Source of the DNA: Solirubrobacterales bacterium
Lineage (GTDB): Bacteria; Bacillota; Syntrophomonadia; Syntrophomonadales; DTU052
Assembly: GCA_050258755.1 (NCBI GenBank)
Contig: JBLMZI010000011.1
Coordinates: forward strand, 198,751 to 262,750
Length of the DNA stretch: 64,000 nucleotides
Reading direction: 5' to 3'
The position numbers and the translations under genes were made by a program. This document shows, piece by piece, positions 5,150 through 47,098 of this stretch. Within the stretch, counting starts at the first letter, position 1. The number at the start of each line of letters is the position of its first letter. The notes below the pieces were generated by a model. It had not been told where the DNA came from and did not search any database. It worked only from the letters and a program-made list of their open reading frames with translations.

Positions 5150-7999
5150 GTGTCCAAGCCATGCTTAACTATTCTTGGTGAAGCGTTAATTGCCACAGAT
5201 CCGACTGGAGCGATTACGTCCATGAATCGCGCGGCGCAGCGGCTTATTGGCCGGGGCGAAATGGAATCGATCGGAATCCCGGTCTCTGAATGTATTCGCA
5301 TTCTTGACCGGTATAAACTCCAGCCGATCGAAATTCCCTGGGAATCCGTCCTTCAAGACGAAATCACCCTGATCATCGATCAGCCGGAAACGGCGCTCCG
5401 GATACCCGGTGCCGCACCGCTTCCGGTTTCGCTTCAGATTCTTCCCTACCGGACCCGGATTGATTTATCGGCTGGTCTGCTGGTCATTCTGAATGCGGCT
5501 GACCCGGTCCAGAATCAAACCGGCGATTTCCAGATGTCCCTGGAAGACTACCGGGATCTTTTTGAGAATTCCGGCACCGCCAATCTGGTTCTGGGCGTGG
5601 ACACGACCATTCTGCTGGCGAACGCGGCGGGCACCACGCTTACCGGGTACACCGGCCAGGAACTCAGGGGAATGCGGTGGACCGCATTGGTGCTCCCTGA
5701 GGACTTGGAACGCATTCAATATATTCACCAGACCAGCCGAGGCGAACAAACCTTTGGCCAGATTCAATACGAGTTCCGCCTGCTTCGGCGGGACCGGGAT
5801 ATTCGTGAGGTGCTCGCGACTGTGACCCGCATACCCGGTACGCGGCACAGTGTCGCAACGGTGCTCGATATTACGGAAAGGAACCGGCTTGAACTGGCCT
5901 GGCGCGAATCCGAACAGGTGTATCGGACTGTTTTCGAAAATACCGGAACGGCAACGATTATTATTGAGGCAGATACCACGATTGCGCTCGCCAACAGCGA
6001 AACGCAAAACCTGATGGGATTCACAAAGGAAGAGTTGGAAGGCCGGATGAGCTGGACCAAGCTGATCCATCCCGATGATGTTCAAACCATGATGGGTTAT
6101 CATAAGGCCCGGCGGGAGACCGGTAAGGAAGTCCCGCGAAACTACGATTTCCGTTTGATCACGAAAGACGGGGAGACCAAAAATGTCATGCTTACGGTTG
6201 CGCTCATTCCAGGAACCGGCCGGAGTATCGCATCTTGTCTGGATGTCACCGAAGCCAGAAAGCTGCAGCAGGCCCTGCGCGAATCGGAGCAAATCTATCG
6301 GACCGTGTTTGAGAATACCGGAACCGCAACGATCATGATCGAAGCGGATACGACAATTTCACTGGCTAACAGCGAGTTTATCAGGCAATCCGGGCATTCT
6401 CGGGAAGAACTGATCGGGATGAGCTGGACCAAGCTGGTCCACCCGGACGACCTGAAAATGATGGTGCAGTATCACCAGACGCGGCGGGAACTGCCTGGGG
6501 AGGTTCCACGGACCTACGAATTCCGTTTTGTATCAAAGACCGGCGGCATCACGGACATTTTCCTCACGGTCGCCCTGATTCAGGGAACCGATAAGAGTAT
6601 TGCATCCCTGCAGGATATCACTGAGCGAAAGCGGCTCGAAAAGGCCTTGCGGGAATCAGAGGAGATGTACCGGACGGTCTTCGAAAATACCGGGACCGCG
6701 ACCGTCTTGATCGACAACGACACGACGATCTCATTGGTTAACGAAGAGTTCTCTAAGCTGTACGGCATCAGCAAGGAAGAAATCGAAGGAAAGATGAGCT
6801 GGCTGGACTTCGTTTACGAACCGGACAAGGACTGGATGAGGCAGTACCACGAAGAAAGGCGCCGGTATCCGCTGGGTACGCCCAACCGCTACGAATTCCG
6901 ATTTGTGGGGCGGGATGGAGTGATTCGCAATACCCTCAACTGTGTTGCGATGATCCCGGGAACCAACAAGAGTGTCGCCAGCTTTGTGGACATCAGCGAT
7001 CTGCGCCGGGCTCAGGAGGAGATCCGCGAACTGAATGCGGAATTGGAACAAAAGGTGATCAGCCGGACCCAGGATCTGATGGCAATGAACGAGGAATTGC
7101 AGGCGATGAACGGCGAACTGGTCCAGACCAATTCCACGCTGGCCGAAGAAATCGCTGAGCGGGAGCGGATCGAACAGGCCCTGGAGCAGACCAACCGGGA
7201 ACTGAGCCGGTCGATTGAACAGTTGAAGGTCGCGCAGAGCCAGTTGGTCCAGTCCGAAAAACTGGCGTCCCTGGGAAGCCTGGTCGCCGGGGTTGCCCAT
7301 GAGATCAACACGCCGGTCGGGCTCGGTGTAACAGCCGCATCCACGTTGGATAAAGTGACCCGAGAGTTCACCCGGGCTTATCAAGAAGGGAACGCTGACA
7401 AGCAGGACCTTCTGGAATACCTGGACGATACCAAGACCGCGGTCTCGATCATTCTCCCGAACCTGCAGCGGGCAGCCCGGCTGATCCGCAGTTTCAAGCA
7501 GGTATCGATCGACCAGTCCAGCGAAGTCCGGCGCGAATTCAACGTTCGTGAGTACCTGGACGAAATTTTGTTAAGTCTGCATCCCAAGCTCAAAAAGACT
7601 CAACAAACCGTGGTTATCGATTGCGAGCCGGATATCGAAATCGACAGCTTCCCCGGACCGTTTGCCCAGATCATTACCAATTTGGTGATGAACAGTCTAA
7701 CCCATGCGTTTGAGCCGCAGCAGCCGGGCGAGATCCGGATCAATGCTCGGAATGACGGAGACGATGTCGAAATGGTTTTCTCGGACAATGGCTGTGGGAT
7801 GGCACCGGAGGTGCTGGCCCGTATTTTTGATCCGTTCTATACGACCCGCCGTGGTCAGGGCGGAACCGGGCTGGGGCTTTATATCCTGTACAATATCGTC
7901 ACCATGCAGTTCGGCGGAACGATCCAATGTGAGAGCGAGCCGGGCAAAGGAACGGTGTTTACGATTCGATTTCCCGCGAGAAAGGAGGCCGCTTCATGA
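5150..7999 (+). CDS. Multi-PAS sensor histidine kinase (cytoplasmic, five PAS domains)
   Basis: GTG start five nt after GGGAGGGG. It has one N-terminal PAS plus four tandem PAS units, a coiled coil, the H-box VAGVAHEINTPVG, and HATPase boxes NLVMNSLTHA, DNGCGM and GTGLGLYI. Confidence 0.92.
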   Translation: MSKPCLTILGEALIATDPTGAITSMNRAAQRLIGRGEMESIGIPVSECIRILDRYKLQPIEIPWESVLQDEITLIIDQPETALRIPGAAPLPVSLQILPYRTRIDLSAGLLVILNAADPVQNQTGDFQMSLEDYRDLFENSGTANLVLGVDTTILLANAAGTTLTGYTGQELRGMRWTALVLPEDLERIQYIHQTSRGEQTFGQIQYEFRLLRRDRDIREVLATVTRIPGTRHSVATVLDITERNRLELAWRESEQVYRTVFENTGTATIIIEADTTIALANSETQNLMGFTKEELEGRMSWTKLIHPDDVQTMMGYHKARRETGKEVPRNYDFRLITKDGETKNVMLTVALIPGTGRSIASCLDVTEARKLQQALRESEQIYRTVFENTGTATIMIEADTTISLANSEFIRQSGHSREELIGMSWTKLVHPDDLKMMVQYHQTRRELPGEVPRTYEFRFVSKTGGITDIFLTVALIQGTDKSIASLQDITERKRLEKALRESEEMYRTVFENTGTATVLIDNDTTISLVNEEFSKLYGISKEEIEGKMSWLDFVYEPDKDWMRQYHEERRRYPLGTPNRYEFRFVGRDGVIRNTLNCVAMIPGTNKSVASFVDISDLRRAQEEIRELNAELEQKVISRTQDLMAMNEELQAMNGELVQTNSTLAEEIAERERIEQALEQTNRELSRSIEQLKVAQSQLVQSEKLASLGSLVAGVAHEINTPVGLGVTAASTLDKVTREFTRAYQEGNADKQDLLEYLDDTKTAVSIILPNLQRAARLIRSFKQVSIDQSSEVRREFNVREYLDEILLSLHPKLKKTQQTVVIDCEPDIEIDSFPGPFAQIITNLVMNSLTHAFEPQQPGEIRINARNDGDDVEMVFSDNGCGMAPEVLARIFDPFYTTRRGQGGTGLGLYILYNIVTMQFGGTIQCESEPGKGTVFTIRFPARKEAAS
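5540..7021 (+). repeat. Four tandem PAS-encoding units (~372-375 nt period)
   Basis: Units start near 5540, 5903, 6278 and 6650. The last three share RESE(Q/E)xYRTVFENTGTAT...DTTIxLxN...MSWxxxxHPDD...Y(D/E)FRxxxxxG... almost in register. Confidence 0.85.
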
Positions 8000-9582
8000 A
8001 CGACCGCGAACGAGAGCCGATTTTTAAACCCAAGAACGAAGCGGGCCGCAATGATGCAGTGAGATCCGCAGAACCGGCGGCACCACCCTGGAAGGTGCTG
8101 ATGGTGGATGACGAGGAAGAGGTCCATCGCGCCACGCGATGGGTTTTTCGGCGGCTTGATTTCGACGAACGGCCCATTGAATTTTTAAGCGCCCGGTCAG
8201 CGGAGGAAGCCAAGGTTATTCTCAATGAGCATCCGGACATCGCGATTATCCTGCTGGATGTGGTGATGGAACAAGAGGACGCGGGACTCAAGCTGGTGCA
8301 TTATATCCGGCAAGAGCTGAATAATAAAATGATCCGCATAATCCTGCGAACCGGGCAGCCTGGTCAGGCGCCGGAAATTGAGGTCATGCGCTACTACGAC
8401 ATCAACGACTACAAAGAGAAAACCGAATTGACCTCGGAAAAACTCTTTACCACCATCATCAGCGGGCTCCGGTCCTACCGGGACTTGAGCATTATCGATC
8501 ACAATCGGAAGGGCCTGCAGAAAATCATTGAGTCTCTTTCCGGGATTTATGAGATCCAGAGCATCAGCAAGCTGGCGTCAGGGGCTTTGGAGCAGCTGGC
8601 GGCGGTGCTTCGGCTGGGGCCGGATGCCCTATATGGGACGACATCCGCATCCGGAATGGCGGTTTCGGGCAGCGTGGACGGGGAATTCAAGGTGCTGGCG
8701 GCAACCGGTGATTATGGATGGATGATTGGCAAAACGATCAATGGCGGTGTTCCGCAACAGGTGCTGCAGGACATCGATGCGGTATTGCAGCAAAAGCACA
8801 CCCTGTTTTTCCCGAACCGGTTCGTGGTCTATTTCCGCAGCCGGCAGGGGTCTGACAATATCATCTACATGGAAGGGATTCAGCAGTTAAACGAATGGGA
8901 ACGCGATCTGGTCGAAGTTTTCTGCATGAATGTTTCGGTTGCGTTCGATAATGTTCAACTGAATCAGGAGATTGTCGCAACCCAGAAGGAGATCATATTT
9001 ACCCTGGGCGAGGTGGCCGAAGCCCGCTCCTATGAAACCGGGCAGCATGTTAAGCGGGTCGCCGAGTATGCGAAACTGCTCGCGGTTAAGTACGGGCTGC
9101 CCACGGAGGAAGCGGAACTGCTGCGGCTGGCGGCGCCGACCCATGATGTGGGCAAGCTGGCCATCGCGGACGCGATCCTGCATAAGCCCGCGAAGCTGAC
9201 CGCGGAAGAGTTTGCGGCCATGAAGGCGCATTGTGAAGTAGGGCATAAAATGCTCTTCAAGTCAGACCGGTCACTGCTTCGCAACGGGGCGCTGATTGCG
9301 AAGCAGCATCATGAAAAGTGGGATGGCACCGGCTATCCGGAAGGATTGATCGGGGAGCAGATTCACATCTACGGCCGGATCGTTGCGCTCGCTGACGTGT
9401 TTGACGCCCTGGGGAGTCACCGAGTGTACAAACAGCCTTGGCCGCTCGACGAGATTTTGGATTATATCAAGGTTGAGCGCGGACGCCATTTCGATCCGAA
9501 ACTGGTGGACATCTTCTTTGATAACCTGGAGGAAATCCTGGCGATCCGGAAGGCTTACCCGGATGAAACGGACGAGAAGTGA
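7996..9582 (+). CDS. Response regulator with HD-GYP phosphodiesterase output domain
   Basis: ATGA overlap with the kinase stop. It has an REC domain (VLMVDDEEE...ILLDVVM...K), a ~160-aa linker domain, and HD-GYP motifs HDVGKLAI and HHEKWDGTGYP. Confidence 0.9.
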   Translation: MNDREREPIFKPKNEAGRNDAVRSAEPAAPPWKVLMVDDEEEVHRATRWVFRRLDFDERPIEFLSARSAEEAKVILNEHPDIAIILLDVVMEQEDAGLKLVHYIRQELNNKMIRIILRTGQPGQAPEIEVMRYYDINDYKEKTELTSEKLFTTIISGLRSYRDLSIIDHNRKGLQKIIESLSGIYEIQSISKLASGALEQLAAVLRLGPDALYGTTSASGMAVSGSVDGEFKVLAATGDYGWMIGKTINGGVPQQVLQDIDAVLQQKHTLFFPNRFVVYFRSRQGSDNIIYMEGIQQLNEWERDLVEVFCMNVSVAFDNVQLNQEIVATQKEIIFTLGEVAEARSYETGQHVKRVAEYAKLLAVKYGLPTEEAELLRLAAPTHDVGKLAIADAILHKPAKLTAEEFAAMKAHCEVGHKMLFKSDRSLLRNGALIAKQHHEKWDGTGYPEGLIGEQIHIYGRIVALADVFDALGSHRVYKQPWPLDEILDYIKVERGRHFDPKLVDIFFDNLEEILAIRKAYPDETDEK

Positions 9583-16252: not shown

Positions 16253-16408
16253 CAATCAGTCTCGGTCGAGGATGAAGCGGTGTCCCAGACACCGGACAAA
16301 CGCTGGAAAGTTCTAGTGGAAAGGCCTCTGGTTTGATAAGATGGAAGCAAGTTTGCGGCGAATAGCTTTCACGCGGTCTGGGAAATCACACCGCAGCAGG
16401 AGAAAAGC

Positions 16409-16424
16409 AGGATGCACGCATCCT
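16409..16424. promoter_or_regulatory. Perfect 7-2-7 inverted repeat, candidate operator
   Basis: AGGATGC-AC-GCATCCT lies about 50 nt upstream of the first ferredoxin-nitroreductase gene. Confidence 0.3.
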
Positions 16425-16475
16425 CGCGGAAACGAAGCCGGCCCACCCGATAAAATGGAGGATGGAGCTGATACC

Positions 16476-17291
16476 ATGATTGTCATTGAATCCGAAAAAT
16501 GCAAACGGGACGGAATATGTGCCCAGGAATGCCCCTTAAGCCTGATCAGTTGGAGCAAGGGCGAGATGCCGGAGATGGTCCAGGACGCCGACAACCGATG
16601 CGTTGCCTGCGGGCACTGCCTGGCGGTCTGCCCGCAGCAGGCCTTATCCCTGGAAGGTATGCCGGTTATCGACTGCCAGCATGTCAACAAAAAGGAACTG
16701 CCTACCGCGGATCAGGTGGAACATTTTATGAAGACCCGCCGTTCGATCCGGATTTACCAGAAAAAGAACGTTTCCCGGGAGATGGTTGAACGGCTGCTCG
16801 GCATCGCCGGCTATGCGCCTTCCGTCCATAATTCCCAGCCGGTCAGCTGGCTGGTGGTGGATGACCGGGAGAAGATCCAGCGTTTGAACCATTATGTGGT
16901 GGAGTGGATGTCGATGGTCATGGCGCAGAATTCGGAAATGGCCAAGGCGCTTCACTTCGATCAGATCATTGAAGCCGCCGAGCGCGGCGAGGACAGGGTC
17001 AGCCGCGAGGCGCCCTGTATGGTGATGGCCTATGCCCCGGCCGATAGCCCGGTGGGGCCGGCCGCGTGCCTGATTGCCGCGACCTATCTGGAACTTGCGG
17101 CTTACGGGCTCGGATTAGGGGCTTGCTGGGCCGGCTATTTCAACGTCGCCGCCGGCGGTTACCCCCCTATGGAAGCCGAACTCGGCCTGCCTGAAGGCCA
17201 AAAGGTTTTCGCCTCGATGATGATTGGTTATCCGAAACTGCAGTACTATGTGGTGCCCAAGCGGATCGAGCCGCGGGTGAGCTGGCTGTAG
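16476..17291 (+). CDS. Ferredoxin-domain/nitroreductase fusion protein
   Basis: N-terminal CxxxxxCxxxCP and CVACGHCLAVCP clusters, then nitroreductase motifs (RRSIRIY, APSVHNSQP, ACWAGY). The start was trimmed to the ATG eight nt after GGAG. Confidence 0.85.
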   Translation: MIVIESEKCKRDGICAQECPLSLISWSKGEMPEMVQDADNRCVACGHCLAVCPQQALSLEGMPVIDCQHVNKKELPTADQVEHFMKTRRSIRIYQKKNVSREMVERLLGIAGYAPSVHNSQPVSWLVVDDREKIQRLNHYVVEWMSMVMAQNSEMAKALHFDQIIEAAERGEDRVSREAPCMVMAYAPADSPVGPAACLIAATYLELAAYGLGLGACWAGYFNVAAGGYPPMEAELGLPEGQKVFASMMIGYPKLQYYVVPKRIEPRVSWL

Positions 17292-17369
17292 TCCCCGGAA
17301 ACCAAAAAACCGATAATGGAAACAGGAAAAGGACGCCGAAATTTTAGCGAAATCCAGGAGGCCTTATCG

Positions 17370-18257
17370 ATGGATTCCCTGACCGTGAATCCGGAAACCT
17401 GTACCAAATGCGGACTGTGCGCCGAAGTGTGCCCGGCCCGGGCGATTCGGCACGCCGCGAAAGCGCTCCCGGCGCAGGATCCGGAACGGGCCGCGATCTG
17501 TATCGAATGCGGCCAGTGCATGGCGGTTTGTCCCAGCCAATCGATTGTAACGGGACAGCTGCGGTACGGCCAAGATTTCATCCCGATAGCCAAATCCCGA
17601 ATCGATTACGCGATGCTGTTCGAGTCGCTGGCGTCGCGGCGTTCGGTTCGAAATTTTCAACCCCGACCGGTGCCGCGCGAGTTGCTGGAGCAAATCATCG
17701 CAGCCATTGAACTGGCGCCGATGGGATTCCCTCCGCACAAAACCCACCTTACCGTGATTCAGGAGCGCGCGGCAGTGGAACGGCTGCTGCCGCCGATGGT
17801 TTCGTTTTTTGAGAACATGCTTCGATGGATAAGAAATCCCATCATGCGGTTTTTCATTCGGCGGGATGCCGGAGAGGAACAGTTTCGCACGATTCAGAAC
17901 CACCTGATTCCGATCATGAAGCTCAGAGTTCCTACGATGAAGCAGCCGAACGCGCTTGACGAGATCACGCGCGGTGCGCCTGTGCTGATCCTTTTTCACG
18001 CTCCGATCAGCGCGGAAGGGCATACCGCGGATGCCTATATCGCCATGACATACGGGCTGCTGGCCGCCCACGCATTGGGACTTGGTGCGACCTCAATCTC
18101 GCTGGTGCCGCCGGCCATTAATAAGACGCCGCAGCTTCGCGATATGGTGCAGCTGCCACCCAATCACGAGGTCGTGACCAGTATTATCCTGGGGTATCCC
18201 CGCTTTAAGTACCAGCGCGGAATCCGGCGGCGTTTGGCGTCGGTTCACTGGCGATAA
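17370..18257 (+). CDS. Ferredoxin-domain/nitroreductase fusion protein (paralog)
   Basis: CTKCGLCAEVCP and CIECGQCMAVCP, then RRSVRNF and a nitroreductase fold. The start was trimmed to the ATG eight nt after AGGAGG. Confidence 0.85.
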   Translation: MDSLTVNPETCTKCGLCAEVCPARAIRHAAKALPAQDPERAAICIECGQCMAVCPSQSIVTGQLRYGQDFIPIAKSRIDYAMLFESLASRRSVRNFQPRPVPRELLEQIIAAIELAPMGFPPHKTHLTVIQERAAVERLLPPMVSFFENMLRWIRNPIMRFFIRRDAGEEQFRTIQNHLIPIMKLRVPTMKQPNALDEITRGAPVLILFHAPISAEGHTADAYIAMTYGLLAAHALGLGATSISLVPPAINKTPQLRDMVQLPPNHEVVTSIILGYPRFKYQRGIRRRLASVHWR

Positions 18258-18397
18258 TCAGCCTTCAAGGGCTATTTGTGGATTTTTTCTTGGAATTTCG
18301 ACGAATTATCCCTACAGACGGCGGCCTAAGCGTGCTATGATGGAAACGTAATGCGTTTCAATGGGTGCTTGATTAGAATCGTTGGGAGGCGTAACGG

Positions 18398-20596
18398 TTG
18401 AAAAAGAGCAAGGTGGCGACGGGGATTTACTGGGTGGAGATTCCGGAGGTGGATCTGCGGATTCTTTGCGGATGTCCGGCCGATGCGATCAAGCATCTCA
18501 TGAAAAAGGACTTTATCACCACGGTCGAGGCCGAGGGTTACTCGTTTGAAACCGGGCCGAACGCCATCCTGCTTTCCGATTTGCCCCTGCAGAACGAACG
18601 CTTTGCCAACCTTGCCGAATTCCCAGTGCTTCAGATGCTTTACCGCCAGGGGATGCTGCTGCCCAAACACCCGAACAACAAAGGCGTCCGCCCGATGCTG
18701 ATCGGTGCCGCGGATTGCGTAAACGCCCAGGCGGAATACATATTCCGGGGGAATTACGGCTTAGTCAGCCTGGAAGAAATCATGTCGACTGGCGTGAGCG
18801 AAGCCGAGGCACAGGAAATGATGCGGGTGAAGCTTCGATTTGCCTTTGGGCGGATTCGCCCGACCGAGGAATTGCTCGATCTTCAGGTTGTTGGCGATGA
18901 GCCGCTTGAAATCCGGACCGGTGTGTTCGTGGAGCGGAAGAGCCTGAACCGGTATGAAATCCGGTACGAAAACGAGACCGTAATGGTTGATTTAAACCTT
19001 GAATCCACAGAGGCCTACGAGCCGGCTTACCAACTTGGCTTTACCGATGCCGGCGCGCAGTACTTTTCCATTATCCATACCGGCGAAGGCGATGGCTGGG
19101 ATACCCACCGTCCCTGCATGGCAAGCATTGTGACCTTCCAGGGCAGATACTATCTGGTGGATGCCGGGCCGAATCTGCTGCACAGCCTTGAAGCCCTGGG
19201 GATTGGCATCAGCGAAATTGAAGGCGTCTTTCAGACCCACGCCCATGACGACCATTTCTGCGGCATTACCACCCTGATCCGTTCGGATCACCGGTTAAAA
19301 TACTATGCCACCCCCACAGTCCGAAAATCGGCGCAGTTGAAGCTCGAAGCGCTCACCGGGATTACCCCGGAACAATTCGCGGTTTATTTCGATACTCACG
19401 ATCTCGTGCCAGACGAATGGAATGATATCGAGGGGCTCGAGGTAAAACCCATCTATTCGCCGCACCCGGTTGAAACCACCGCCTTTTTGTTCCGGGCCTT
19501 GTGGAGCGGCGGATACCGAACGTATGCCCACCTGGCCGATATTGTTTCCCTTCCCGTCCTAAAGCGAATGATTTCTGACAGTACCGCCATGACCGGGATT
19601 TCGCGCGAACGATACAATAAGGTGAAAGCGGACTATTTTGAGCCCGCCAATCTCAAGAAAATTGACGTCGGCGGCGGAATGATTCACGGATCGGCCAAGG
19701 ATTTTCGGCATGATCCGTCCCCGTTGATTCTGAGTCATACGGCCTTGCCGCTGACTGACCAGGAAAAGGAACTCGGGGACAGCGCGACCTTCGGCTCGGT
19801 TGATGTTTTGATCCATTCCCAGCACGATTATCTGCTGAAGGTGGCGGTCAGGCATTTCAGCGAGTTCTTTCCGGATGTGCCCCAGCATGAAATCGCGATG
19901 CTGCGGAACTGCCCGCTGGTGTCTTTCAATCCGGGCCGCAACCTGATTCGGAACGAAGAGCGGTGCAAGGAAGTCTACTATATTTTGTCCGGCCTGGTGG
20001 ATTACCGCAATGCGCATTCAAATTTCCACAGCATTCTTGGAATCGGTTCGTTTATCGGCGAGCTTTCCTGCCTAATGGCGGGCGAGACTCAGGGGACTTA
20101 CCGGGCGGCCAGCTATGTGAAAGCGCTGGCCATTCCGAGTGAACTGTATATGGCTTTCTTAAACCGGAATGGGATACTGGAGTCAGCCCGGAGCCATGCT
20201 GAAAAAAGGTTGTTTCTTCAGAACACCTGGCTGTTTGGCGAGCGGATTTCCTGTCCGGTGCGCGGCCGGATCGCCCGGGAGATGACCGAGGAGTCGTTTG
20301 AGGCAGGCAAGACCATTCGTTTCTCCAACAAGCCGGCGCTTTATCTTCTGGCCAGCGGGGAAGTGATTCTTTCGGCCGGGAAGCGGGAATTTGAATACTG
20401 TCAGGCCGGCAAATGTTTCGGCGAAGAAAGCATTATCTGCGGGAGACGGCTGTATTCGGCGAAGGCGTACGACCCGGTCAGCGTATACCGGATTCCTGCG
20501 GAAACGCTGAAGGATATTCCGATTGCCCAGTGGAAGCTCCTGGAGGTTTACGAACGGCGCCGGCGCGGCGCGATGGATATTCGCGGCTGGAAATAG
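18398..20596 (+). CDS. Three-part protein: unknown N-terminal domain, MBL-fold hydrolase, two cyclic-nucleotide-binding domains
   Basis: TTG start after GGGAGG. THAHDDHFCG is an HxHxDH metallo-beta-lactamase motif. Two CAP/CNB-like segments are present (FIGELSCLMAGETQGTYRAAS and CFGEESIICGRRLYSAKAYD). Confidence 0.8.
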   Translation: MKKSKVATGIYWVEIPEVDLRILCGCPADAIKHLMKKDFITTVEAEGYSFETGPNAILLSDLPLQNERFANLAEFPVLQMLYRQGMLLPKHPNNKGVRPMLIGAADCVNAQAEYIFRGNYGLVSLEEIMSTGVSEAEAQEMMRVKLRFAFGRIRPTEELLDLQVVGDEPLEIRTGVFVERKSLNRYEIRYENETVMVDLNLESTEAYEPAYQLGFTDAGAQYFSIIHTGEGDGWDTHRPCMASIVTFQGRYYLVDAGPNLLHSLEALGIGISEIEGVFQTHAHDDHFCGITTLIRSDHRLKYYATPTVRKSAQLKLEALTGITPEQFAVYFDTHDLVPDEWNDIEGLEVKPIYSPHPVETTAFLFRALWSGGYRTYAHLADIVSLPVLKRMISDSTAMTGISRERYNKVKADYFEPANLKKIDVGGGMIHGSAKDFRHDPSPLILSHTALPLTDQEKELGDSATFGSVDVLIHSQHDYLLKVAVRHFSEFFPDVPQHEIAMLRNCPLVSFNPGRNLIRNEERCKEVYYILSGLVDYRNAHSNFHSILGIGSFIGELSCLMAGETQGTYRAASYVKALAIPSELYMAFLNRNGILESARSHAEKRLFLQNTWLFGERISCPVRGRIAREMTEESFEAGKTIRFSNKPALYLLASGEVILSAGKREFEYCQAGKCFGEESIICGRRLYSAKAYDPVSVYRIPAETLKDIPIAQWKLLEVYERRRRGAMDIRGWK

Positions 20597-20637: not shown

Positions 20638-21537
20638 ATGCTTATCCGTTTAAGAAACAGCTTGATTTTCAGATCTTTTGACGAGTATGCCCGGGAACCG
20701 GTTGGGAAAGCCATGGGGTTTTTGGCCGTCCTGGTCCTGCTGGTCAGTCTCCCGGTGCTGGGTATGTACTGCTATAACCTGATGCAGGGCATTGACGAGA
20801 TGACAAAGGAAGCTGCTAAAATGCCGGACTTCACGTTTTCCGGCGGAAAGCTTACGGTGAACGCTCCGATGCCGATTGTCCAGGAAAACGGAGCTTCGCT
20901 GATCGTCATCGACACGAGCAATCAGACGCCGCCGACAGTTCTGGACCAATACGCCGACGGCATGATCATTTACAACGACCGGATGATTCAGAAACAGGCA
21001 GGCGGCTCTACCCGCGAAACGAAATTTGAACCGTTTGCCAAGTATTCATTCAATAAAGCTGAACTGATTCGAGCGGTTCCGTATTTAAAATGGATCAGCG
21101 TCCTGGTGGTCGTTTTCGGCTTAATCTATTTCTTCCTCGGCAAACTGCTGCAGGCCACGGTTTTTGCTTTGATCGGCCTGGTAGTGGGAGCGATCCGCAA
21201 GACTGAATTTGGCTACGGTTCGGCATTCATTATCGCAATTTACGCGCTGATCTGGCCGTCTGTCATTCAGGCGGTGCTTCGGATCGGATTTGATGCGTAC
21301 CCCTACCCGTATCCCGGGTGGACCTATTGGGGGCTGTTCCTGATCTGTATGATTGCCGGTGTCATTATGGCAACGCCGCCGAAGACCGAACCGGTGCCGG
21401 AAGCCGCCGGCGCACCGTTTGCGGCTACGCCAACCCAGGTCATCGATGTGACACCAGCGGAACCGGAAGCCGATGTCGCACCCACGCCGCCTGAGGGGGC
21501 GCCGTTGACCGGTGAAGAGCCATCGAAGCAGGAATAA
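20638..21537 (+). CDS. DUF1189-like polytopic membrane protein with Pro/Ala/Glu-rich C-terminal tail
   Basis: N-terminal TM, an extracytoplasmic segment PDFTFSGGKLTV...IVIDTS, four more TM helices, then TPPKTEPVPEAAGAP...PAEPEADVAPTPPEGAP. Confidence 0.65.
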   Translation: MLIRLRNSLIFRSFDEYAREPVGKAMGFLAVLVLLVSLPVLGMYCYNLMQGIDEMTKEAAKMPDFTFSGGKLTVNAPMPIVQENGASLIVIDTSNQTPPTVLDQYADGMIIYNDRMIQKQAGGSTRETKFEPFAKYSFNKAELIRAVPYLKWISVLVVVFGLIYFFLGKLLQATVFALIGLVVGAIRKTEFGYGSAFIIAIYALIWPSVIQAVLRIGFDAYPYPYPGWTYWGLFLICMIAGVIMATPPKTEPVPEAAGAPFAATPTQVIDVTPAEPEADVAPTPPEGAPLTGEEPSKQE

Positions 21538-36646: not shown

Positions 36647-39600
36647 CTATTTTCCGCCCAGCAGTTGGAGCACCATTTGCGGCCGCTGGTTGGCCTGGGC
36701 CAGCATGGCAGTTCCGGCCTGGCCCAAAATATTGACCTTGGTGTATTCCATCATTTCCTTGGCCATATCGACATCGCGGATGCGGGATTCTGAGCTGGTC
36801 AGGTTTTCCTCGGCAACGGAAAGGTTGTTTATGGCATGTTCCAGGCGGTTCTGAAGTGCGCCCACATCGGAACGCAGACCCGATACCCGGCTGATGGCGG
36901 CATCCAGGTGACTAATGGCCCGTCCCGCGAGTTCCCGAGTAGTGACTAAAAGGCCGGCCACACCGAGCCCGCGCGAACCGATTTCACCGAGCGCTAGACG
37001 GAGCGCCTGGTTTTCGCCGGCGCCGCCCTGTAGCGCGATCTGACGGTCGGCAAGGTGTATATATTCCCGATCCGCGCCGCCCTTTAAGGTGAAGGAATCG
37101 GTATCGGAATCGTAAGATGCCTGGGTCATGCCCAGCGATGCGCCCAACTGCAGCTCGATACCGTTGCTGAATACCGTTTCCATTGACTGTCCGGACGGAA
37201 GGACCTGCTCGGCCAGGGTTTCACCGGTATTCGCATCGGCGACGCTGACGGTAAGGGTATTGTCGGTTCCCTTCTGCAGCGAAGTCAGACCCAGGGCCCG
37301 CATGATGTCCTCATCCCCGACAATATTCAGATCTCCGGCCGTGCCAGCGACTGCGGAGCGAATCACTAGACTGCCCTCAACCTGTTCCAGCCCGGTTGAA
37401 TCACTTACCCAATCGACAAAAGTCGCGAATTTGTTTTTATCATTTCCGGCGACCAGTGTGTTCTGGCCCAGGTCTTCGTAAACCGCCTGGTTGATGCGGT
37501 CGAGAATATCGATGATCTCGTCAGTGGCATAAAGCGACACTTCGGCGGTCTTGCCGTTGCTGATCAGGGTCAGGGTTCGCGGCGTATCAAGCAGATACCG
37601 CCCGTCCCCGTTATAGAAATTGGTGATATCCTGCAGTTTTGTGTAGTGATGCGCCATTCGGGCATCGGTTCCGGTTTCGCCCGTGGTGAAAACCGCGGCA
37701 TCAGTGACTTTGCGCGGGGTCATTAAGTTGTTGGTGACGCCAAGGGCGGTGCCGCCCAGGAAGTCATTAAAACCAAGCGCCATTTCGGCATCGTGGATAT
37801 CCCCGTTTTGGCTGTTGGTCTGGTAAAAACGCAGGGGCGTGGTCCGGCTGTCCAGAACGCCTTCATTAAAGCGCCAGGAAACCGGGTAGGGGGTTGGTTC
37901 TCCCAAGTTCATCGCCTGGAAGAGATCCAATTCATCCGCAGCAGGGCTTGCCTGTGCATCAGCCGAGACCGAAAGACAGACTCGGTCGCCGGTTTGCAGT
38001 TCACTTAAATCCGCCCAATCAAAGTTGGTAAAGTTGATGCCGCTGAATCCGGACGTGGAGAACAGGTTGCAGTTCGGGTTGTTAAGCCCCATGGAAATCG
38101 AATCGTCATAGACGTAGGTATAATTGCCGTTCTTGTCGTAGCAATGGGCCTGACCGCGCAGAATCACCCGGTTGTCCAGCACGGTCAGCACCTCGAGCAT
38201 GATGGAGGCATTGTATGGATTGGCGGGATCTGCTTCAATTTGGCCGATAAACGCCCCGATTGTATCGCTTGAACCGCGGCCTTGAAAATAGGAGCTGGTA
38301 ATGGATGCGCCACCCGCCGGAACAGTACGGCCTTGATAATTGACTTCCAGCGTGGCGGCGGAATTGGTGCCAAATACAGTGCCGGCGGCCAGGCCGGTCC
38401 CTTCGAGTATGGCCAGAATACTGCCGGTTTCGACCGAACCGTCGAGCGGATTAACGAACCAACCGGCCAGATTCAAGGTCAACCCGTTTTCGGCATCCTG
38501 CGCAAACCGGTATTCGATCGTACTTCCGCCGGATGCCCAGGGATTTCCCGTTACCCGGATGTTGGCATCGGAGTGCTGGTTGGGCGGTAGGTTGTGATAA
38601 GCCGCGTCACCCGCCCGGGCGGAGACATTGACCACAAACCGGTCACCCACCGTCAGGCTGCCGCCAAGGTTAAACTGGTCGAATTGGAGCGGGCCAACCG
38701 TTAAGGCGCCGCCCGGAACCGCCAGATCGACCGGCCCAAAGTCATTTGGCAGGCCGTTTCGGTTGTAACCCTTGCCTTGAAAACGGATGGTCGGCGGAAT
38801 CCCGTTGCTGACCACCTCGCACAAAAGGGAACAGTTGTCATCTTCCTGGCTCCAGGCGTTGATTCCGGTCAGGTAAGTGGCCGGGTTTCCGCCATTGGCA
38901 AAATAGTAGGTCGTATCGCTGCCATAAGAAGCGTATGCTTCGTGGTTGAAGCCAGCGGCGGCGTATCGTTCGCTGTAAGTGACCGCATTAGCCTGGGTGG
39001 CGATGGTGCCGAAATCGATATTGTGCTGAACCGTGGCTGAGGTTCCGATGCCAGTTCGAACCAGCTGCGGCAGCAGAACCGCGCTGTTGTTGTCCAGCAC
39101 TCCATTATTAAACCGGTAGCGGGTAGTGAACGTGTCGTTGGTCGCGCCGTCGAGCAGTTCCGAATCAACCTGATCATAGGCGCCGGCGGCCGCGGCCGAG
39201 GTATATAGAGTCCAGGAATCACCGACGGCCAGTTCGGCCCCGTTTGTGCTGTCGGGCAGGGTAATAGAGGTAAATGGCAGCGGCTGACCGGAGAGCACCA
39301 GCGAGTTGTTGGTGCCAAGCCGGCCTTCCCACCAATCGTCGGAGTGGGTTCCGGAAACCAGCGTGCCGTTATTGCTGACTCCGGTCCAGGTCGTCTGAAC
39401 GGTAACCCGGTCTCGTGCCTGCAGCCACAGTGTGTTGACTGGAGCCGCACCGGCCCGTATGGTTTGAGCGCCTCCGAAAAGGGTAGTGCAGCCGGCTCCG
39501 GTCAGGCGGACTTCCCGGCGGGTGGGAGCGGTATCGTTATTGTCAAACTGGAATTGTCCGTAGGCCTGGCTGGTGTCATCCGGGGTGGTCAGCCAGTTTA

Positions 39601-41839
39601 CAGCAAAGTTGGCCGGATCCCAGGCTGCCATCGCGGCCCGAGCCTGTTCTATTGTTGAACCAGCGGGAATCACGGCGCCCAGCACGGTATTGTAATCTTT
39701 CGCGGTACCGAACACAGCCGCGCCGCGGCCGCAGGCACCCGCGATACCGCATTCGGTGATGGTGGAACCGCCGCCGCCGACTGTAATCTGATACCGGGTA
39801 TTATTGAGGTCGTTTCGAACATTGATAACCTGCTGGGCCCCGGCCGCCTGCATCTGAAAGACCGGTCCCGCAGGGGGGGCTAAATCGGCAAGGGCAATTG
39901 CGTTGGTCATCGCGGTATTCAAAGCAGCAGTGATTTGGTTGAGGACTATAGCGTTAAAGGCAATTGGGTTGCTGGTATATCCATGCAGAACCCGATTGCC
40001 GGTCGAGCTTCCGCTAGCCGTCACCGTCATGCCGCCCAGCCCCAGGTCGGTTTCGGCCGAACCGGCCGCCCCATCGGTCAGAAACGTAACCGAACGATCG
40101 GCCGTGTTGTTCACGACTTGAAGCCGGTACACCCCGCCGGTAAGATCGACTGCCATCGCGTCAACATTATAGCCGGGAACGCCGGCAAACGCAGCATCGA
40201 TCGCGGTGCCGATCTGCTGAATGTTTCTTGAGCTGATGTCAATGATCAGCGATCGGTCGTAATCCTGGGCTGTGCCATCGGTCAGCCCGGACGGTATGAA
40301 GCCGCCAGTCAAAGCGCCATCAACACCGAGCGTTGTTGCAGCGGAACCCGACAGCTTAAGCGTGATTCCGGCGCCTAACGTATTGTTGATCCGAAGCTGC
40401 AGTTGGTCGCCTCCGGCGACAGTCGATAAGGTGACATCCGTGGCCAAGACTCCGCCATGCAGCCCGTTGGCGGCTGCTTCCAGCGCTAACGCGGTATCAT
40501 CCATATTCAGGCCGCTGACGTCGACGTCGACATCATCCGTGGTGCCATTGTCGTCTATCTCGATATTAATTACCGAGCCGGGCGGATTGGTGTAGTAAAG
40601 CCTGGCTTCCACGGTTTCCGCGGCACCAGACATATAGGTCAGGCCGAGGGTTGCATTATCGCCGTTAGCCGACCGGTAATAGGTCCGGGCCGAGATGGTG
40701 CCGGCCAGCGTGGTTCTGGCCTGGGTACCGGTTACCTCAAAAGATGTGTACATGTTGTTGGCGTAATTGGGATTGGTCGTATAAGATACGTCGCCGCCGG
40801 CGGGAGCACCATTGATGGTTATTGAGCCGCCCCCGGCGCCGCCGATATCGGTCCAGGCGGCCTGGGTTTGGGAGGTGGCCGGCCCGGCCGCGGCCGTGAT
40901 ATCCATCTGGACATCGATATTAGCACGCCCGGTTGCGCTTACCCCGTTGATGACATCAGGCCCGGCCACAGTATCGGCATAAACGGCCATAAACGGAACC
41001 GTGTCCGCGACCTGTACCGTATAGTCCCCGTAAGGAACCAGATCCGGGCTGGGAGTGCTTGACACGGTGATGCCCAGATCAACGTCCGGTGTGGCGGTGT
41101 CAGCGCCGCCGGGATCTATATAAGAAATGCCGCCAAATGGGGTTTCTCTGGCCTCCAACCGATAATCGCCTTCGGCTAATCCGGCCGCCTGCAGAGACTT
41201 CAACCCGGTATAGGCACCGGAAGCCGGTTTATCGGTGAATTCGGTAACTCCGGTAACCCGCGCGAGCATGGCGTTGGTTCCCTGAATTTGCGCGGTACCC
41301 GGGGTTGCCTGAAGATCCAGTCGGTACTCGCCGCTGGCCGGAACCGCGCCAGGTTTGGTGCCGACCGAACCGGTGGACACCACCCGCACATCGTTGCTGG
41401 AACTGCTCCAGAGCAGGGACGATGAGCCATCTAGAAGGTTTTTCTGGTTAAAGGTCGTGGAGCGGGAGATTTCATCCAGCCCTTGCTTCAGTTGATCCAT
41501 TTCTTTCTGGATTTCCATCCGGTCGTTCATGGTATTGGTGTCATTGGCCCCTTGCACGGCCAATTCGCGCATGCGCTGCAGAATGCTGTGGCATTCGGAA
41601 AGCGCGCCGTCAGCGGTCTGCAGCAGGGAAACCCCGTCCTGCAGGTTTCTTCCCGCCTGAGAAAGACCGGCGATTTGCGCGCGCATTTTCTCGGAAATCG
41701 CAAGGCCAGCCGCGTCGTCCGCCGCCTTGTTGATTCTGAGACCGGAAGATAAGCGCTCCAGAGCCTTCCCGGCCGATGTGCTGGTGCGGCTGAGCGCATG
41801 ATATGTATTTAATGATTGAATGTTATGGAAGATGCGCAT
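36647..41839 (-). CDS. fliC: Giant flagellin (about 1,730 aa)
   Basis: N-terminus MRIFHNIQSLNTYHAL...LSSGLRINKAADDAAGLAISEKMRAQI...ILQRMRELAVQGAND. C-terminus LQNRLEHAINNL...SRIRDVDMAKEMMEYTKVNILGQAGTAMLAQANQ. The start was set at the ATG seven nt after GGGAG, not at the track Met at 42004. Confidence 0.9.
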   Translation of the reverse strand: MRIFHNIQSLNTYHALSRTSTSAGKALERLSSGLRINKAADDAAGLAISEKMRAQIAGLSQAGRNLQDGVSLLQTADGALSECHSILQRMRELAVQGANDTNTMNDRMEIQKEMDQLKQGLDEISRSTTFNQKNLLDGSSSLLWSSSSNDVRVVSTGSVGTKPGAVPASGEYRLDLQATPGTAQIQGTNAMLARVTGVTEFTDKPASGAYTGLKSLQAAGLAEGDYRLEARETPFGGISYIDPGGADTATPDVDLGITVSSTPSPDLVPYGDYTVQVADTVPFMAVYADTVAGPDVINGVSATGRANIDVQMDITAAAGPATSQTQAAWTDIGGAGGGSITINGAPAGGDVSYTTNPNYANNMYTSFEVTGTQARTTLAGTISARTYYRSANGDNATLGLTYMSGAAETVEARLYYTNPPGSVINIEIDDNGTTDDVDVDVSGLNMDDTALALEAAANGLHGGVLATDVTLSTVAGGDQLQLRINNTLGAGITLKLSGSAATTLGVDGALTGGFIPSGLTDGTAQDYDRSLIIDISSRNIQQIGTAIDAAFAGVPGYNVDAMAVDLTGGVYRLQVVNNTADRSVTFLTDGAAGSAETDLGLGGMTVTASGSSTGNRVLHGYTSNPIAFNAIVLNQITAALNTAMTNAIALADLAPPAGPVFQMQAAGAQQVINVRNDLNNTRYQITVGGGGSTITECGIAGACGRGAAVFGTAKDYNTVLGAVIPAGSTIEQARAAMAAWDPANFAVNWLTTPDDTSQAYGQFQFDNNDTAPTRREVRLTGAGCTTLFGGAQTIRAGAAPVNTLWLQARDRVTVQTTWTGVSNNGTLVSGTHSDDWWEGRLGTNNSLVLSGQPLPFTSITLPDSTNGAELAVGDSWTLYTSAAAAGAYDQVDSELLDGATNDTFTTRYRFNNGVLDNNSAVLLPQLVRTGIGTSATVQHNIDFGTIATQANAVTYSERYAAAGFNHEAYASYGSDTTYYFANGGNPATYLTGINAWSQEDDNCSLLCEVVSNGIPPTIRFQGKGYNRNGLPNDFGPVDLAVPGGALTVGPLQFDQFNLGGSLTVGDRFVVNVSARAGDAAYHNLPPNQHSDANIRVTGNPWASGGSTIEYRFAQDAENGLTLNLAGWFVNPLDGSVETGSILAILEGTGLAAGTVFGTNSAATLEVNYQGRTVPAGGASITSSYFQGRGSSDTIGAFIGQIEADPANPYNASIMLEVLTVLDNRVILRGQAHCYDKNGNYTYVYDDSISMGLNNPNCNLFSTSGFSGINFTNFDWADLSELQTGDRVCLSVSADAQASPAADELDLFQAMNLGEPTPYPVSWRFNEGVLDSRTTPLRFYQTNSQNGDIHDAEMALGFNDFLGGTALGVTNNLMTPRKVTDAAVFTTGETGTDARMAHHYTKLQDITNFYNGDGRYLLDTPRTLTLISNGKTAEVSLYATDEIIDILDRINQAVYEDLGQNTLVAGNDKNKFATFVDWVSDSTGLEQVEGSLVIRSAVAGTAGDLNIVGDEDIMRALGLTSLQKGTDNTLTVSVADANTGETLAEQVLPSGQSMETVFSNGIELQLGASLGMTQASYDSDTDSFTLKGGADREYIHLADRQIALQGGAGENQALRLALGEIGSRGLGVAGLLVTTRELAGRAISHLDAAISRVSGLRSDVGALQNRLEHAINNLSVAEENLTSSESRIRDVDMAKEMMEYTKVNILGQAGTAMLAQANQRPQMVLQLLGGK
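37650..39260 (-). repeat. Three divergent tandem ~190-220-aa modules inside the flagellin variable region
   Basis: L(A/T/Q)(V/T)GD(S/R)... motifs lie near 39222, 38648 and 37990. Each is followed 110-145 nt later by (Y/W)RF(N/A) near 39110, 38505 and 37875. Modules one and two also share (I/L)R(F/G)Q(G/A)...(N/D)(R/K)NG. Confidence 0.6.
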
Positions 41840-42084
41840 GAGAAAGCTCCCAGCGGCCGTCGGGAAAAAACCAAACGGCGGATTCCGGGCGCATTTGGCG
41901 GCGCGGCATGAACCAGACAGCCGTCGGAGCGGATTTCCCCCTTTTTGACCAGGGAAACCCCCTCGTATTGCAAGACTGCGCTGGTGCAGAGGCGGATGCG
42001 TCATTCAGTCGGCATCCAGGGGCATCTCTTCCGTGAGAGGCCTGCCCGTTTTAACCCGCGAAACCAACCCGGTTTCTGTATACT

Positions 42085-46335: not shown

Positions 46336-46525
46336 CGGCTTTCAGCACCTCGTTCATCATGATGCCGGACCCGGTTTCCCCAGGTCCTTTGTCTCATTGT
46401 ACCCCGGTGTGTGGAAAGAAAATAGGGTCAGTTCTTCCAGCAAATGCGGGCAGGGCTTCTAAACGACACAGCAGCATGGGATACTGAATGGATAAAAGGA
46501 ATATGCATCCATCGAGGTGGTATTT

Positions 46526-47098
46526 ATGAAAAAACAATCAAACCGATTTCGGTTCAGCGGCAGTCGGGGCGTGGTGGCCGGAATACTCATCGGGATGGTC
46601 TTTCTGATGCCAGGATGTCACGGCGCCGAAAAGAAAATCGGCGCCAATCCGGTAAAGAAGGCCGAGTCAGGAGAAAGAGCGCAGCAGCAAACGGTTCAGC
46701 TGTATTTTGCGGACGCCGAAGCCACGGCCTTGGTTGCGGAACCGCGCCGGCTTCAAGCCAGTGAGGCGGAACTGCCAAAAGCCATCGTTGAGGCGTTGGT
46801 TCAGGGCCCCAAACGGCCGGGATCATTTCCGACCATTCCGCCAGGCACGAAAGTAAATCGCGTTTCTGTCGCTGGTGGGACCGCCGCGGTTGATTTCTCG
46901 AACGCCATCCGAACCGCGGGCTGGGGCGGATCAGCCGGGGAAGGACTTCTGGTGTATTCTGTGGTGCAAAGCCTGACGCAGCTGCCGGGGATCGAACGGG
47001 TCCAGTTTCTCATCGACGGGAAAACGGTTGAAACCTTCTGGGGGCACATGGATACAACACAGCCGTTTCTGCCAATGCCGGACCAGGTCCGCGAATAG
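46526..47098 (+). CDS. GerMN domain protein (sporulation/germination-associated), probable lipoprotein
   Basis: Signal peptide ending in PGC, then the GerMN pattern VQLYF...ALVQGP...TKVNRVSVAGGTAAVDFS...SLTQLPGIERVQFLIDG. Confidence 0.8.
   Translation: MKKQSNRFRFSGSRGVVAGILIGMVFLMPGCHGAEKKIGANPVKKAESGERAQQQTVQLYFADAEATALVAEPRRLQASEAELPKAIVEALVQGPKRPGSFPTIPPGTKVNRVSVAGGTAAVDFSNAIRTAGWGGSAGEGLLVYSVVQSLTQLPGIERVQFLIDGKTVETFWGHMDTTQPFLPMPDQVRE

Follow-up and report, generated by a model that had tools for sequence, protein, structure and literature searches.

Within the 64,000-nucleotide stretch of contig JBLMZI010000011.1 analysed here (the window), a complete gene on the forward strand (18398..20596) encodes a 732-residue protein in which an N-terminal domain (N-domain) is followed by a metallo-beta-lactamase (MBL) hydrolase and two cyclic-nucleotide-binding (CNB) domains, CNB1 and CNB2. 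A first-pass annotation of the window had placed an open reading frame (ORF) of this length here; its position and length agree with the ORF list, and the peptides it quoted (HAHDDH, GELSCLMAGETQGTYRA and GEESIICGRRLYSAKA) translate as claimed. The gene starts with TTG, 8 nucleotides downstream of a ribosome-binding site, GGGAGG, read from the sequence (18384..18389, forward strand), and the resulting N-terminus (MKKSKV...) aligned with the first residues of homologous proteins. An identical protein (P0001) is present in a public metagenome-assembled genome (MAG), and full-length homologues sharing 50–58% identity were found in many phyla, their sources including Syntrophomonas, Deltaproteobacteria, Spirochaetota, Lentisphaerae, Anaerolineae, Latescibacterota, SAR324 and others. 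Judged by this identical protein and by the full-length homologues in many phyla, the target is a real, conserved gene. An AlphaFold2 model of the full-length protein, built with 27 homologues, reached a predicted local distance difference test score (pLDDT) of 89.3 and a predicted template modelling score (pTM) of 0.90, and the latter implies that the domains are probably packed in a fixed arrangement. The Foldseek search of this model against the PDB was dominated by CNB matches, and a viral fold search returned generic MBL hydrolases only; neither ranked the MBL subfamily.

The N-domain covers residues 1 to ~220 (18398..19057, forward strand). It had been left unassigned before, and it indeed gave no match to Pfam, NCBIfam or PDB sequences. 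When it was used as a phmmer query against 1.84e9 representative proteins, only 274 matches were obtained, all from the same family, and in 81 of the 82 representatives that could be checked the N-domain is directly followed by an MBL domain with HxHxDH. The strongest conservation in the whole protein, as seen in the homologue alignment, lies in this domain and includes the motifs LCGCPADxxKH, ETGPN, LLSD, NLxEFPxLQ, PxHPNNxG and YxxRGNYGL, with C24, K32, N71, E74, Y82, Q84, Y114, K145 and N184 as invariant polar residues. So many invariant polar residues argue for a role that would be more than structural.

An AlphaFold2 model of the N-domain alone had a pLDDT of 87.6. Foldseek returned no strong match for it in the PDB, the best being PqqB (E 2.8e-3, template modelling (TM) score 0.40), and all of the matches with a TM score of at least 0.27 were MBL-fold proteins, namely PqqB, arylsulfatase, RNase J1, RNase Z, PNGM-1, the MBL domain of ComEC, glyoxalase II and PqsE. 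Matches to other folds had TM scores of at most 0.18 and probabilities of at most 0.05. A sequence-detectable duplicate of the MBL domain was considered and rejected, as hhalign against the family's own MBL profile gave nothing (probability 0.2%). Given that every fold match with a TM score of at least 0.27 is an MBL protein, we propose with moderate to low confidence that the N-domain is a highly diverged, probably degenerate MBL-like half without the HxHxDH metal site. Combined with its exclusive occurrence in this family, the MBL domain following it in 81 of 82 cases, its top conservation and the pTM of 0.90, these fold matches suggest that the N-domain and the MBL domain form an obligate unit.

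The catalytic MBL-fold domain follows at residues ~221–478 (19058..19831, forward strand) and scored above the Pfam gathering cut-offs of both Lactamase_B (33.0 bits versus 22.7) and Lactamase_B_2 (31.1 versus 27). Its motif 2, HAHDDH (H281–H286; 19238..19255, forward strand), was read from the translation and is invariant in the alignments. All five MBL metal-ligand motifs (D; HxHxDH; H; D; H) are present and conserved, motifs 3 to 5 having been assigned by alignment and secondary structure. Across 202 relatives, down to 36% identity, conservation was at least 97% for D255, H281, H283, D285, H286, H356, D381 and H447, and likewise for H378, K420, K421, D423, H430 and D435. Because the metal ligands are conserved to this extent, the MBL domain is predicted to be an active enzyme and not a scaffold.

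Placement of this enzyme among known MBL families was approached with profiles. When the catalytic-domain profile was searched against PDB sequences, the top matches were Apyc1 structures (7u2s, 3.9e-7; 7u2r, 1.4e-5; 7t28, 2.2e-5), with arylsulfatase 8gyg in fourth place (3.9e-5), followed by ELAC1 (5.7e-5) and RNase Z (1.8e-4), and with RNase J also listed. The best NCBIfam matches were RNase Z models (4.2e-11 and 4e-10), partial matches confined to residues 236–366 that lie well below the curated cut-offs (TIGR02651 and NF000801; 42.5 bits versus 292.95 and 39.3 versus 252). The Apyc1 family PF23023 reached 22.3 bits against a gathering cut-off of 50, over residues 243–307 only, and the class II phosphodiesterase (PDE) family PF02112 gave no Pfam match to the target at E≤1. 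Weak NCBIfam matches to the YtnP and AidB lactonases and to glyoxalase II (E≥7.6e-4) covered the generic HxHxDH region only, and the PHROGs match was to a generic "metal-dependent hydrolase". The first-pass annotation had noted a close resemblance of the motif to the signature of class II PDEs, but HxHxDHxxG is generic to the MBL superfamily and, with PF02112 silent, membership of that family is not supported. The choice between PDE and RNase Z, on which the earlier reading was to stand or fall, comes out ambiguous: Apyc1 is the closest solved relative by profile, and the domain falls between Apyc1 (22.3 of 50 bits) and RNase Z (42.5 of 293 bits) and in neither family. With scores far below the cut-offs of both families and PF02112 silent, the MBL domain is therefore placed in the RNase Z/Apyc1 branch as a member of no named family. 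In addition, H356 of motif 3 and D381 of motif 4 are only 25 residues apart, apparently leaving no room for the flexible arm (exosite) of RNase Z, which thus seems to be excluded at its usual site.

Apyc1 is a metal-dependent phosphodiesterase of 3',5'-cyclic nucleoside monophosphates (cNMPs), and Hobbs et al. placed it in a structural group with YhfI, PDE1 and RNase Z, every one of them a homodimer (PMC9117128). Given that the scores stay far below the cut-offs of all characterised families, phosphodiesterase chemistry of the target is suggested by its nearest neighbours alone.

The C-terminal third of the protein consists of CNB1 (residues ~495–605; 19880..20212, forward strand) and CNB2 (residues ~606–726; 20213..20575, forward strand). 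Pfam cNMP_binding (PF00027) matched in two stretches with an E-value of 1.6e-20 and 73.3 bits versus a gathering cut-off of 27.5, the best stretch being residues 632–706, in CNB2. CNB1 was aligned by HMMER without gaps to the CNB domains of SthK and HCN2, and Foldseek matched the tandem to the CNB-A/B pairs of PKG and of the regulatory subunit of protein kinase A (PKA-R) with an E-value of 2e-15 and TM scores of 0.45–0.50 against the matched structures. The first-pass annotation of an MBL-fold hydrolase carrying two C-terminal domains that score as cNMP-binding is thus borne out by the Pfam cut-offs and by Foldseek.

The equivalent of the phosphate-binding cassette in CNB1, GELSCLMAGETQGTYRA (20057..20107, forward strand), keeps its Gly-Glu, and in the gapless alignment to HCN2 and to GEMALILRAPRTATVRA of SthK the phosphate-clamping Arg falls on T564. 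In CNB2 the equivalent is GEESIICGRRLYSAKA (20420..20467, forward strand), with an NtcA-like RLYSAKA whose Arg the family does not conserve. Among PDB sequences, CNB2 is matched best by NtcA itself (2xgx, 9.8e-5), a 2-oxoglutarate sensor in which RFYHAVA stands opposite RLYSAKA. Across ~200 relatives, the Arg column of CNB1 is occupied by S (35%), A (15%), V (10%), L (7%) and T (6%), and the equivalent column of CNB2 is variable, with Arg in ~8%. At the start of the cassette, the Gly-Glu that contacts the ribose 2'-OH persists in each domain, with G at 88% in both and E at 76% in CNB1 and 72% in CNB2. Neither domain, then, has the conserved cassette Arg of canonical cAMP/cGMP receptors (Arg209 of PKA RIalpha). 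The possibility that R569 serves as the phosphate-binding Arg by way of a five-residue insertion was ruled out by the gapless SthK/HCN2 alignment and by the 17-mer length of the CNB1 cassette in the family, which equals that of canonical bacterial 17-mers such as GELSLLTGGPRSATVRA (PMC2246266). Because of this gapless alignment and canonical length, R569 is better read as the Arg/Lys of "VRA", two residues past a conserved Thr.

According to Kannan et al., the cassette Arg is the key phosphate ligand, and families without it sense other ligands (PMC2246266). In trypanosome PKA-R the polar residues T318 and N442 replace the Arg, which goes with a switch to nucleoside ligands (PMC10959531). As the clamp Arg is kept in neither domain of the target, the ligand of its CNB domains need not be cAMP or cGMP, and canonical control by these nucleotides is doubtful. 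The sensor fold itself is real, but cAMP or cGMP as its ligand cannot be assumed.

The N-domain and MBL domain recur together as a core in several architectures. The core occurs alone (~470–483 residues, its gene confirmed to be complete within long contigs), with two CNB domains as in the target, and with two CNB domains plus a C-terminal hemerythrin domain (~865 residues). The last of these is the commonest form among the best 80 genome loci, where the median ORF is 862 residues. N-terminal REC, GAF, CHASE2 or SBP_bac_3 domains are found on the core as well. Because it is reused alone or with such varied sensor domains, the core appears to behave as a signalling output module. One genome per species was scanned, and at least 533 species proved to carry a relative; cultured carriers include strains of Magnetospirillum and Paramagnetospirillum, and Desulfobaculum. 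No match to the core was obtained by tblastn in 50,697 phage records or in 72,556 plasmid records. In public databases, the family members looked at carry generic names only ("cyclic nucleotide-binding domain-containing protein", "MBL fold metallo-hydrolase" or "hemerythrin").

When all neighbouring ORFs were clustered, the only recurring neighbours, at 30 of ~80 loci, were REC, histidine-kinase, GGDEF and SpoIIE genes, often ending 10–250 nucleotides upstream on the same strand. Nothing else recurred that could be taken as a conserved operon partner, and no defence-type partner recurred among the sampled neighbour clusters. The earlier statement that the window lacks a cyclase gene proved correct for all ORFs of at least 185 residues.

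Several individual relatives deserve separate mention. The 82nd of the checkable representatives, a 715-residue relative (P0225), keeps the MBL domain with all of its metal ligands replaced (SSNLHDDNF for THAHDDHF, SIDSVES for SPHPVET and ILNQNS for ILSHTA), and its N-domain and CNB regions are still present; it is an apparent pseudoenzyme paralogue. The SAR324 MAG nPCRbin10 contains three separate paralogues (at loci L034, L049 and L065), one of which is directly preceded by a double-REC protein. Two diverged core-only members of ~480 residues (P0133 and P0196) have a gene for a 180-residue TerB-domain protein 10–73 nucleotides upstream on the same strand (L087 6386-6928 and L090 2143-2685); the core-only P0230 is without the TerB gene. 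A full-length copy with 50% identity (L079 3673-5850) lies on a 13.6-kb contig of a MAG labelled 'Promethearchaeota archaeon' (Asgard) and could have got there by horizontal transfer or through contamination during binning.

Enzymes that make or break second messengers typically come with varied sensor domains fused to them, in several paralogous copies and beside two-component genes. Because this pattern is joined in the target's family by an intact binuclear-metal site and by nearest relatives that are nucleotide phosphodiesterases or nucleases, the protein may well be a phosphodiesterase that acts on a small nucleotide signal under the control of its sensor domains; this is the reading that we tentatively favour. 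It would be a stand-alone cytoplasmic signalling enzyme whose core is a fixed two-domain unit, with the N-domain, as a degenerate metal-free MBL-like half, packing on the active binuclear-metal hydrolase. The core would cleave a phosphodiester bond in a small nucleotide signal; the foremost candidate is a 3',5'-cyclic mononucleotide, and a dinucleotide, whether cyclic or linear, is also possible. The N-domain would replace the second protomer of the homodimeric relatives and contribute to substrate recognition, while the tandem CNB module would be the regulatory input, binding a small ligand and thereby relieving or imposing inhibition of the core in a PKA-R-like manner. Beyond the domain anatomy, metal-ligand conservation, modular reuse of the core, signalling neighbourhood and non-canonical CNB cassettes, which were observed directly, we infer phosphodiesterase chemistry, the nucleotide substrate, the pseudo-dimer role of the N-domain, with the putative geometry that it would adopt with the MBL domain, and the direction of regulation. 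A bolder formulation, possible but less likely than not as a whole, is that the core represents an unrecognised class of output domain, an intramolecular pseudo-dimeric MBL phosphodiesterase that degrades a nucleotide second messenger in anaerobic and microaerophilic bacteria and is gated by PKA-R-like tandem CNB domains switched to a ligand other than a cyclic nucleotide, such as a nucleoside-like or metabolite signal, and in many species also by a hemerythrin sensor of oxygen or redox state.

Several results weigh against the phosphodiesterase reading. The scores to every characterised MBL family are far under the respective cut-offs, class II PDEs give no match, and an arylsulfatase (8gyg) is found among the top profile matches. 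Both CNB domains lack the Arg expected of cNMP receptors. No cyclase is encoded among the ORFs of at least 185 residues in the window, and none recurs near the relatives. The MBL-like nature of the N-domain comes from weak Foldseek matches (E≥2.8e-3, TM≤0.40) without sequence-profile support. Finally, we found no paper on the family or the architecture, and the family has no characterised member.

The same matches leave some room for a ligand-gated ribonuclease, an RNase Z-like endonuclease in which the tandem of pseudo-MBL and MBL halves mimics ELAC2 and which cuts RNA when its sensors allow. Long-form RNase Z (ELAC2) consists of an inactive N-terminal MBL half and an active C-terminal half, and the inactive-then-active order proposed for the target is this very layout. 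The best NCBIfam matches are the RNase Z models (4.2e-11 and 4e-10), ELAC1, RNase Z and RNase J appear among the PDB profile matches, and RNase J1 and RNase Z among the fold matches of the N-domain. However, the 42.5 bits against 293 are confined to residues 236–366, and the 25 residues from H356 to D381, as assigned from the alignments, would leave no space for a flexible arm. Furthermore, fusions to REC, GAF, CHASE2, SBP and hemerythrin domains and multiple paralogues are typical of second-messenger enzymes and not of RNA-processing ones. We therefore regard a ribonuclease as unlikely.

Arylsulfatase 8gyg is not only the fourth-best profile match (3.9e-5) but also a fold match of the N-domain, which raises the question of whether the target, like enzymes of many other MBL subfamilies, hydrolyses a small molecule that is not a nucleotide, here under sensor control; a lactone, sulfate ester, thioester or xenobiotic could be the substrate. 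The weak NCBIfam matches to YtnP, AidB lactonase and glyoxalase II point the same way, and CNB domains without the cNMP Arg offer no direct tie to nucleotides. These lactonase and glyoxalase matches, however, cover the generic HxHxDH region at NCBIfam E-values of at least 7.6e-4; moreover, the recurring neighbours are signalling genes, with no metabolic operon partner among them, and the architecture resembles that of second-messenger enzymes. Such a hydrolase is, in our judgement, improbable.

By contrast with the phosphodiesterase reading favoured above, the first-pass annotation proposed a phosphodiesterase controlled allosterically by its own substrate or by a second nucleotide, a model taken here as that of a canonical cAMP/cGMP phosphodiesterase activated by its own substrate at the CNB domains. 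It draws on the Pfam cNMP_binding score, well over cut-off, on the retained cassette Gly-Glu (G 88%, E 72–76%), on Apyc1 as the top PDB match and on the precedent of Bd1971, a cAMP-sensing CNB-EAL phosphodiesterase (PMC6717892). Control by its own cNMP substrate is nevertheless not supported, as the clamp Arg is gone in CNB1 (T564) and conserved in neither CNB domain across ~200 relatives, given that this Arg defines canonical cassettes (PMC2246266) and that its loss accompanies the nucleoside switch in trypanosome PKA-R (PMC10959531). PF02112 is silent and no cyclase lies nearby among ORFs of at least 185 residues, and we consider the substrate-activated model quite improbable. A defence or counter-defence component, that is, an Apyc1-like degrader or regulator of Pycsar- or CBASS-type signals, is very improbable even with Apyc1 as the top PDB match, a weak Pfam match to PF23023 and weak PADLOC matches between CNB1 and the CNB portion of Pycsar effectors (E 4e-6 to 5e-5), since the PADLOC matches span ~60 residues of generic CNB fold and the earlier analogy to anti-Pycsar Apyc1 fails on context: the core is absent by tblastn from the 50,697 phage and 72,556 plasmid records, and its neighbourhood is one of housekeeping and signalling genes, the latter alone recurring, with no recurring defence-type partner among the sampled clusters.

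Around the target gene, two tandem genes for ferredoxin (4Fe-4S)-nitroreductase fusions (16341-17291 and 17316-18257, forward strand) lie directly upstream, and a DUF1189 gene (20638-21537), not conserved elsewhere, begins 41 nucleotides downstream. A rubrerythrin-like gene also lies downstream and, like the nitroreductase fusions, is not conserved beside homologues elsewhere. Promoter and terminator scans at the target locus gave nothing above chance. A riboswitch or other RNA element 5' of the gene was considered and rejected, with no Rfam match at E≤1 in the window region, and no RNA element was found at the Rfam gathering score at eight related loci. About 9 kb upstream of the target, a multi-PAS histidine kinase gene (5150-7999, forward strand) overlaps by 4 nucleotides a gene for a REC-DUF3369-HD_5 protein (7996-9582, forward strand), and the two are a likely cyclic di-GMP phosphodiesterase pair, the second protein being an HD-GYP-type, RpfG-like response regulator. 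Elsewhere in the window, a 1785-residue ORF on the reverse strand (36647-42004) encodes a giant flagellin with Flagellin_N at residues 58–195 and Flagellin_C at residues 1698–1782, flanking a central insert of ~1500 residues without a Pfam match. A Germane (spore germination) domain protein is encoded at 46517-47098 on the forward strand. The MAG containing the identical protein P0001 is labelled 'Solirubrobacterales bacterium'; the Germane gene and the closest homologues (Syntrophomonas) suggest a Firmicutes-like origin, and the label may be wrong.

Bacterial second-messenger turnover is ascribed to EAL, HD-GYP and DHH/DHHA1 domains, class I–III PDEs and small MBL enzymes such as YhfI and Apyc1. 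The folds found in the target are all known already; what is new is an undescribed family-specific domain obligately coupled to an MBL hydrolase, and also the use of this core as a signalling output module gated by tandem CNB domains without the Arg. The family is large, strongly conserved and wired to REC, GAF, CHASE2, SBP, hemerythrin and CNB sensors, and its most conserved domain has no Pfam or NCBIfam model. Should the family prove to be phosphodiesterases, it would add a new output module to signalling censuses and hint that a route of degradation has been missed in Desulfobacterales, Syntrophomonadaceae, Spirochaetota, Magnetospirillum, Magnetococcales and SAR324. Bacteria would have, in the Arg-less tandem CNB module, a counterpart of the ligand switch of trypanosome PKA-R, and the forms fused to hemerythrin hint at a connection with oxygen or redox sensing. 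The cultured Magnetospirillum and Paramagnetospirillum carriers may permit a genetic test.

Among known systems, Apyc1 (PF23023; 7U2S/7U2R) shares with the target the MBL fold with HxHxDH and gave the best solved-structure match of the catalytic-domain profile (3.9e-7). Apyc1, however, is a ~250-residue single-domain homodimer that is mainly phage-encoded, whereas the target adds a 220-residue N-domain and two CNB domains and is without copies in the phage and plasmid records searched. RNase Z, ELAC1 and ELAC2 belong to the same MBL branch, and a layout of an inactive and an active half is proposed for the target as well; they differ from it in score (42.5 bits versus 293) and in the flexible arm, for which the target seems to have no space. 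RNase Z is not known to occur in sensor-domain fusions. Class II PDEs (PF02112; yeast PDE1 and Vibrio CpdP) resemble the target in the MBL fold and in an HxHxDHxxG-type motif, but PF02112 itself gives no match. For the C-terminal third, the tandem CNB-A/B of PKA-R and PKG is alike in fold; PKA RIalpha has Arg209 and Arg333, whereas the target cassettes are without a conserved Arg and its module is fused to a hydrolase instead of inhibiting a kinase. CNB sensors of ligands other than cNMPs (trypanosomatid PKA-R, NtcA and CooA) likewise carry a small or polar residue in place of the cassette Arg, although the target family does not retain the Glu that is specific to trypanosomes at cassette position 3 (S 53%). 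Finally, Bd1971 (CNB-EAL) and the eukaryotic GAF-PDEs follow the same logic of a small-molecule sensor joined to a phosphodiesterase output (PMC6717892), but they do so with an EAL or HD catalytic fold and canonical cAMP/cGMP sensing, in contrast to the MBL fold of the target.

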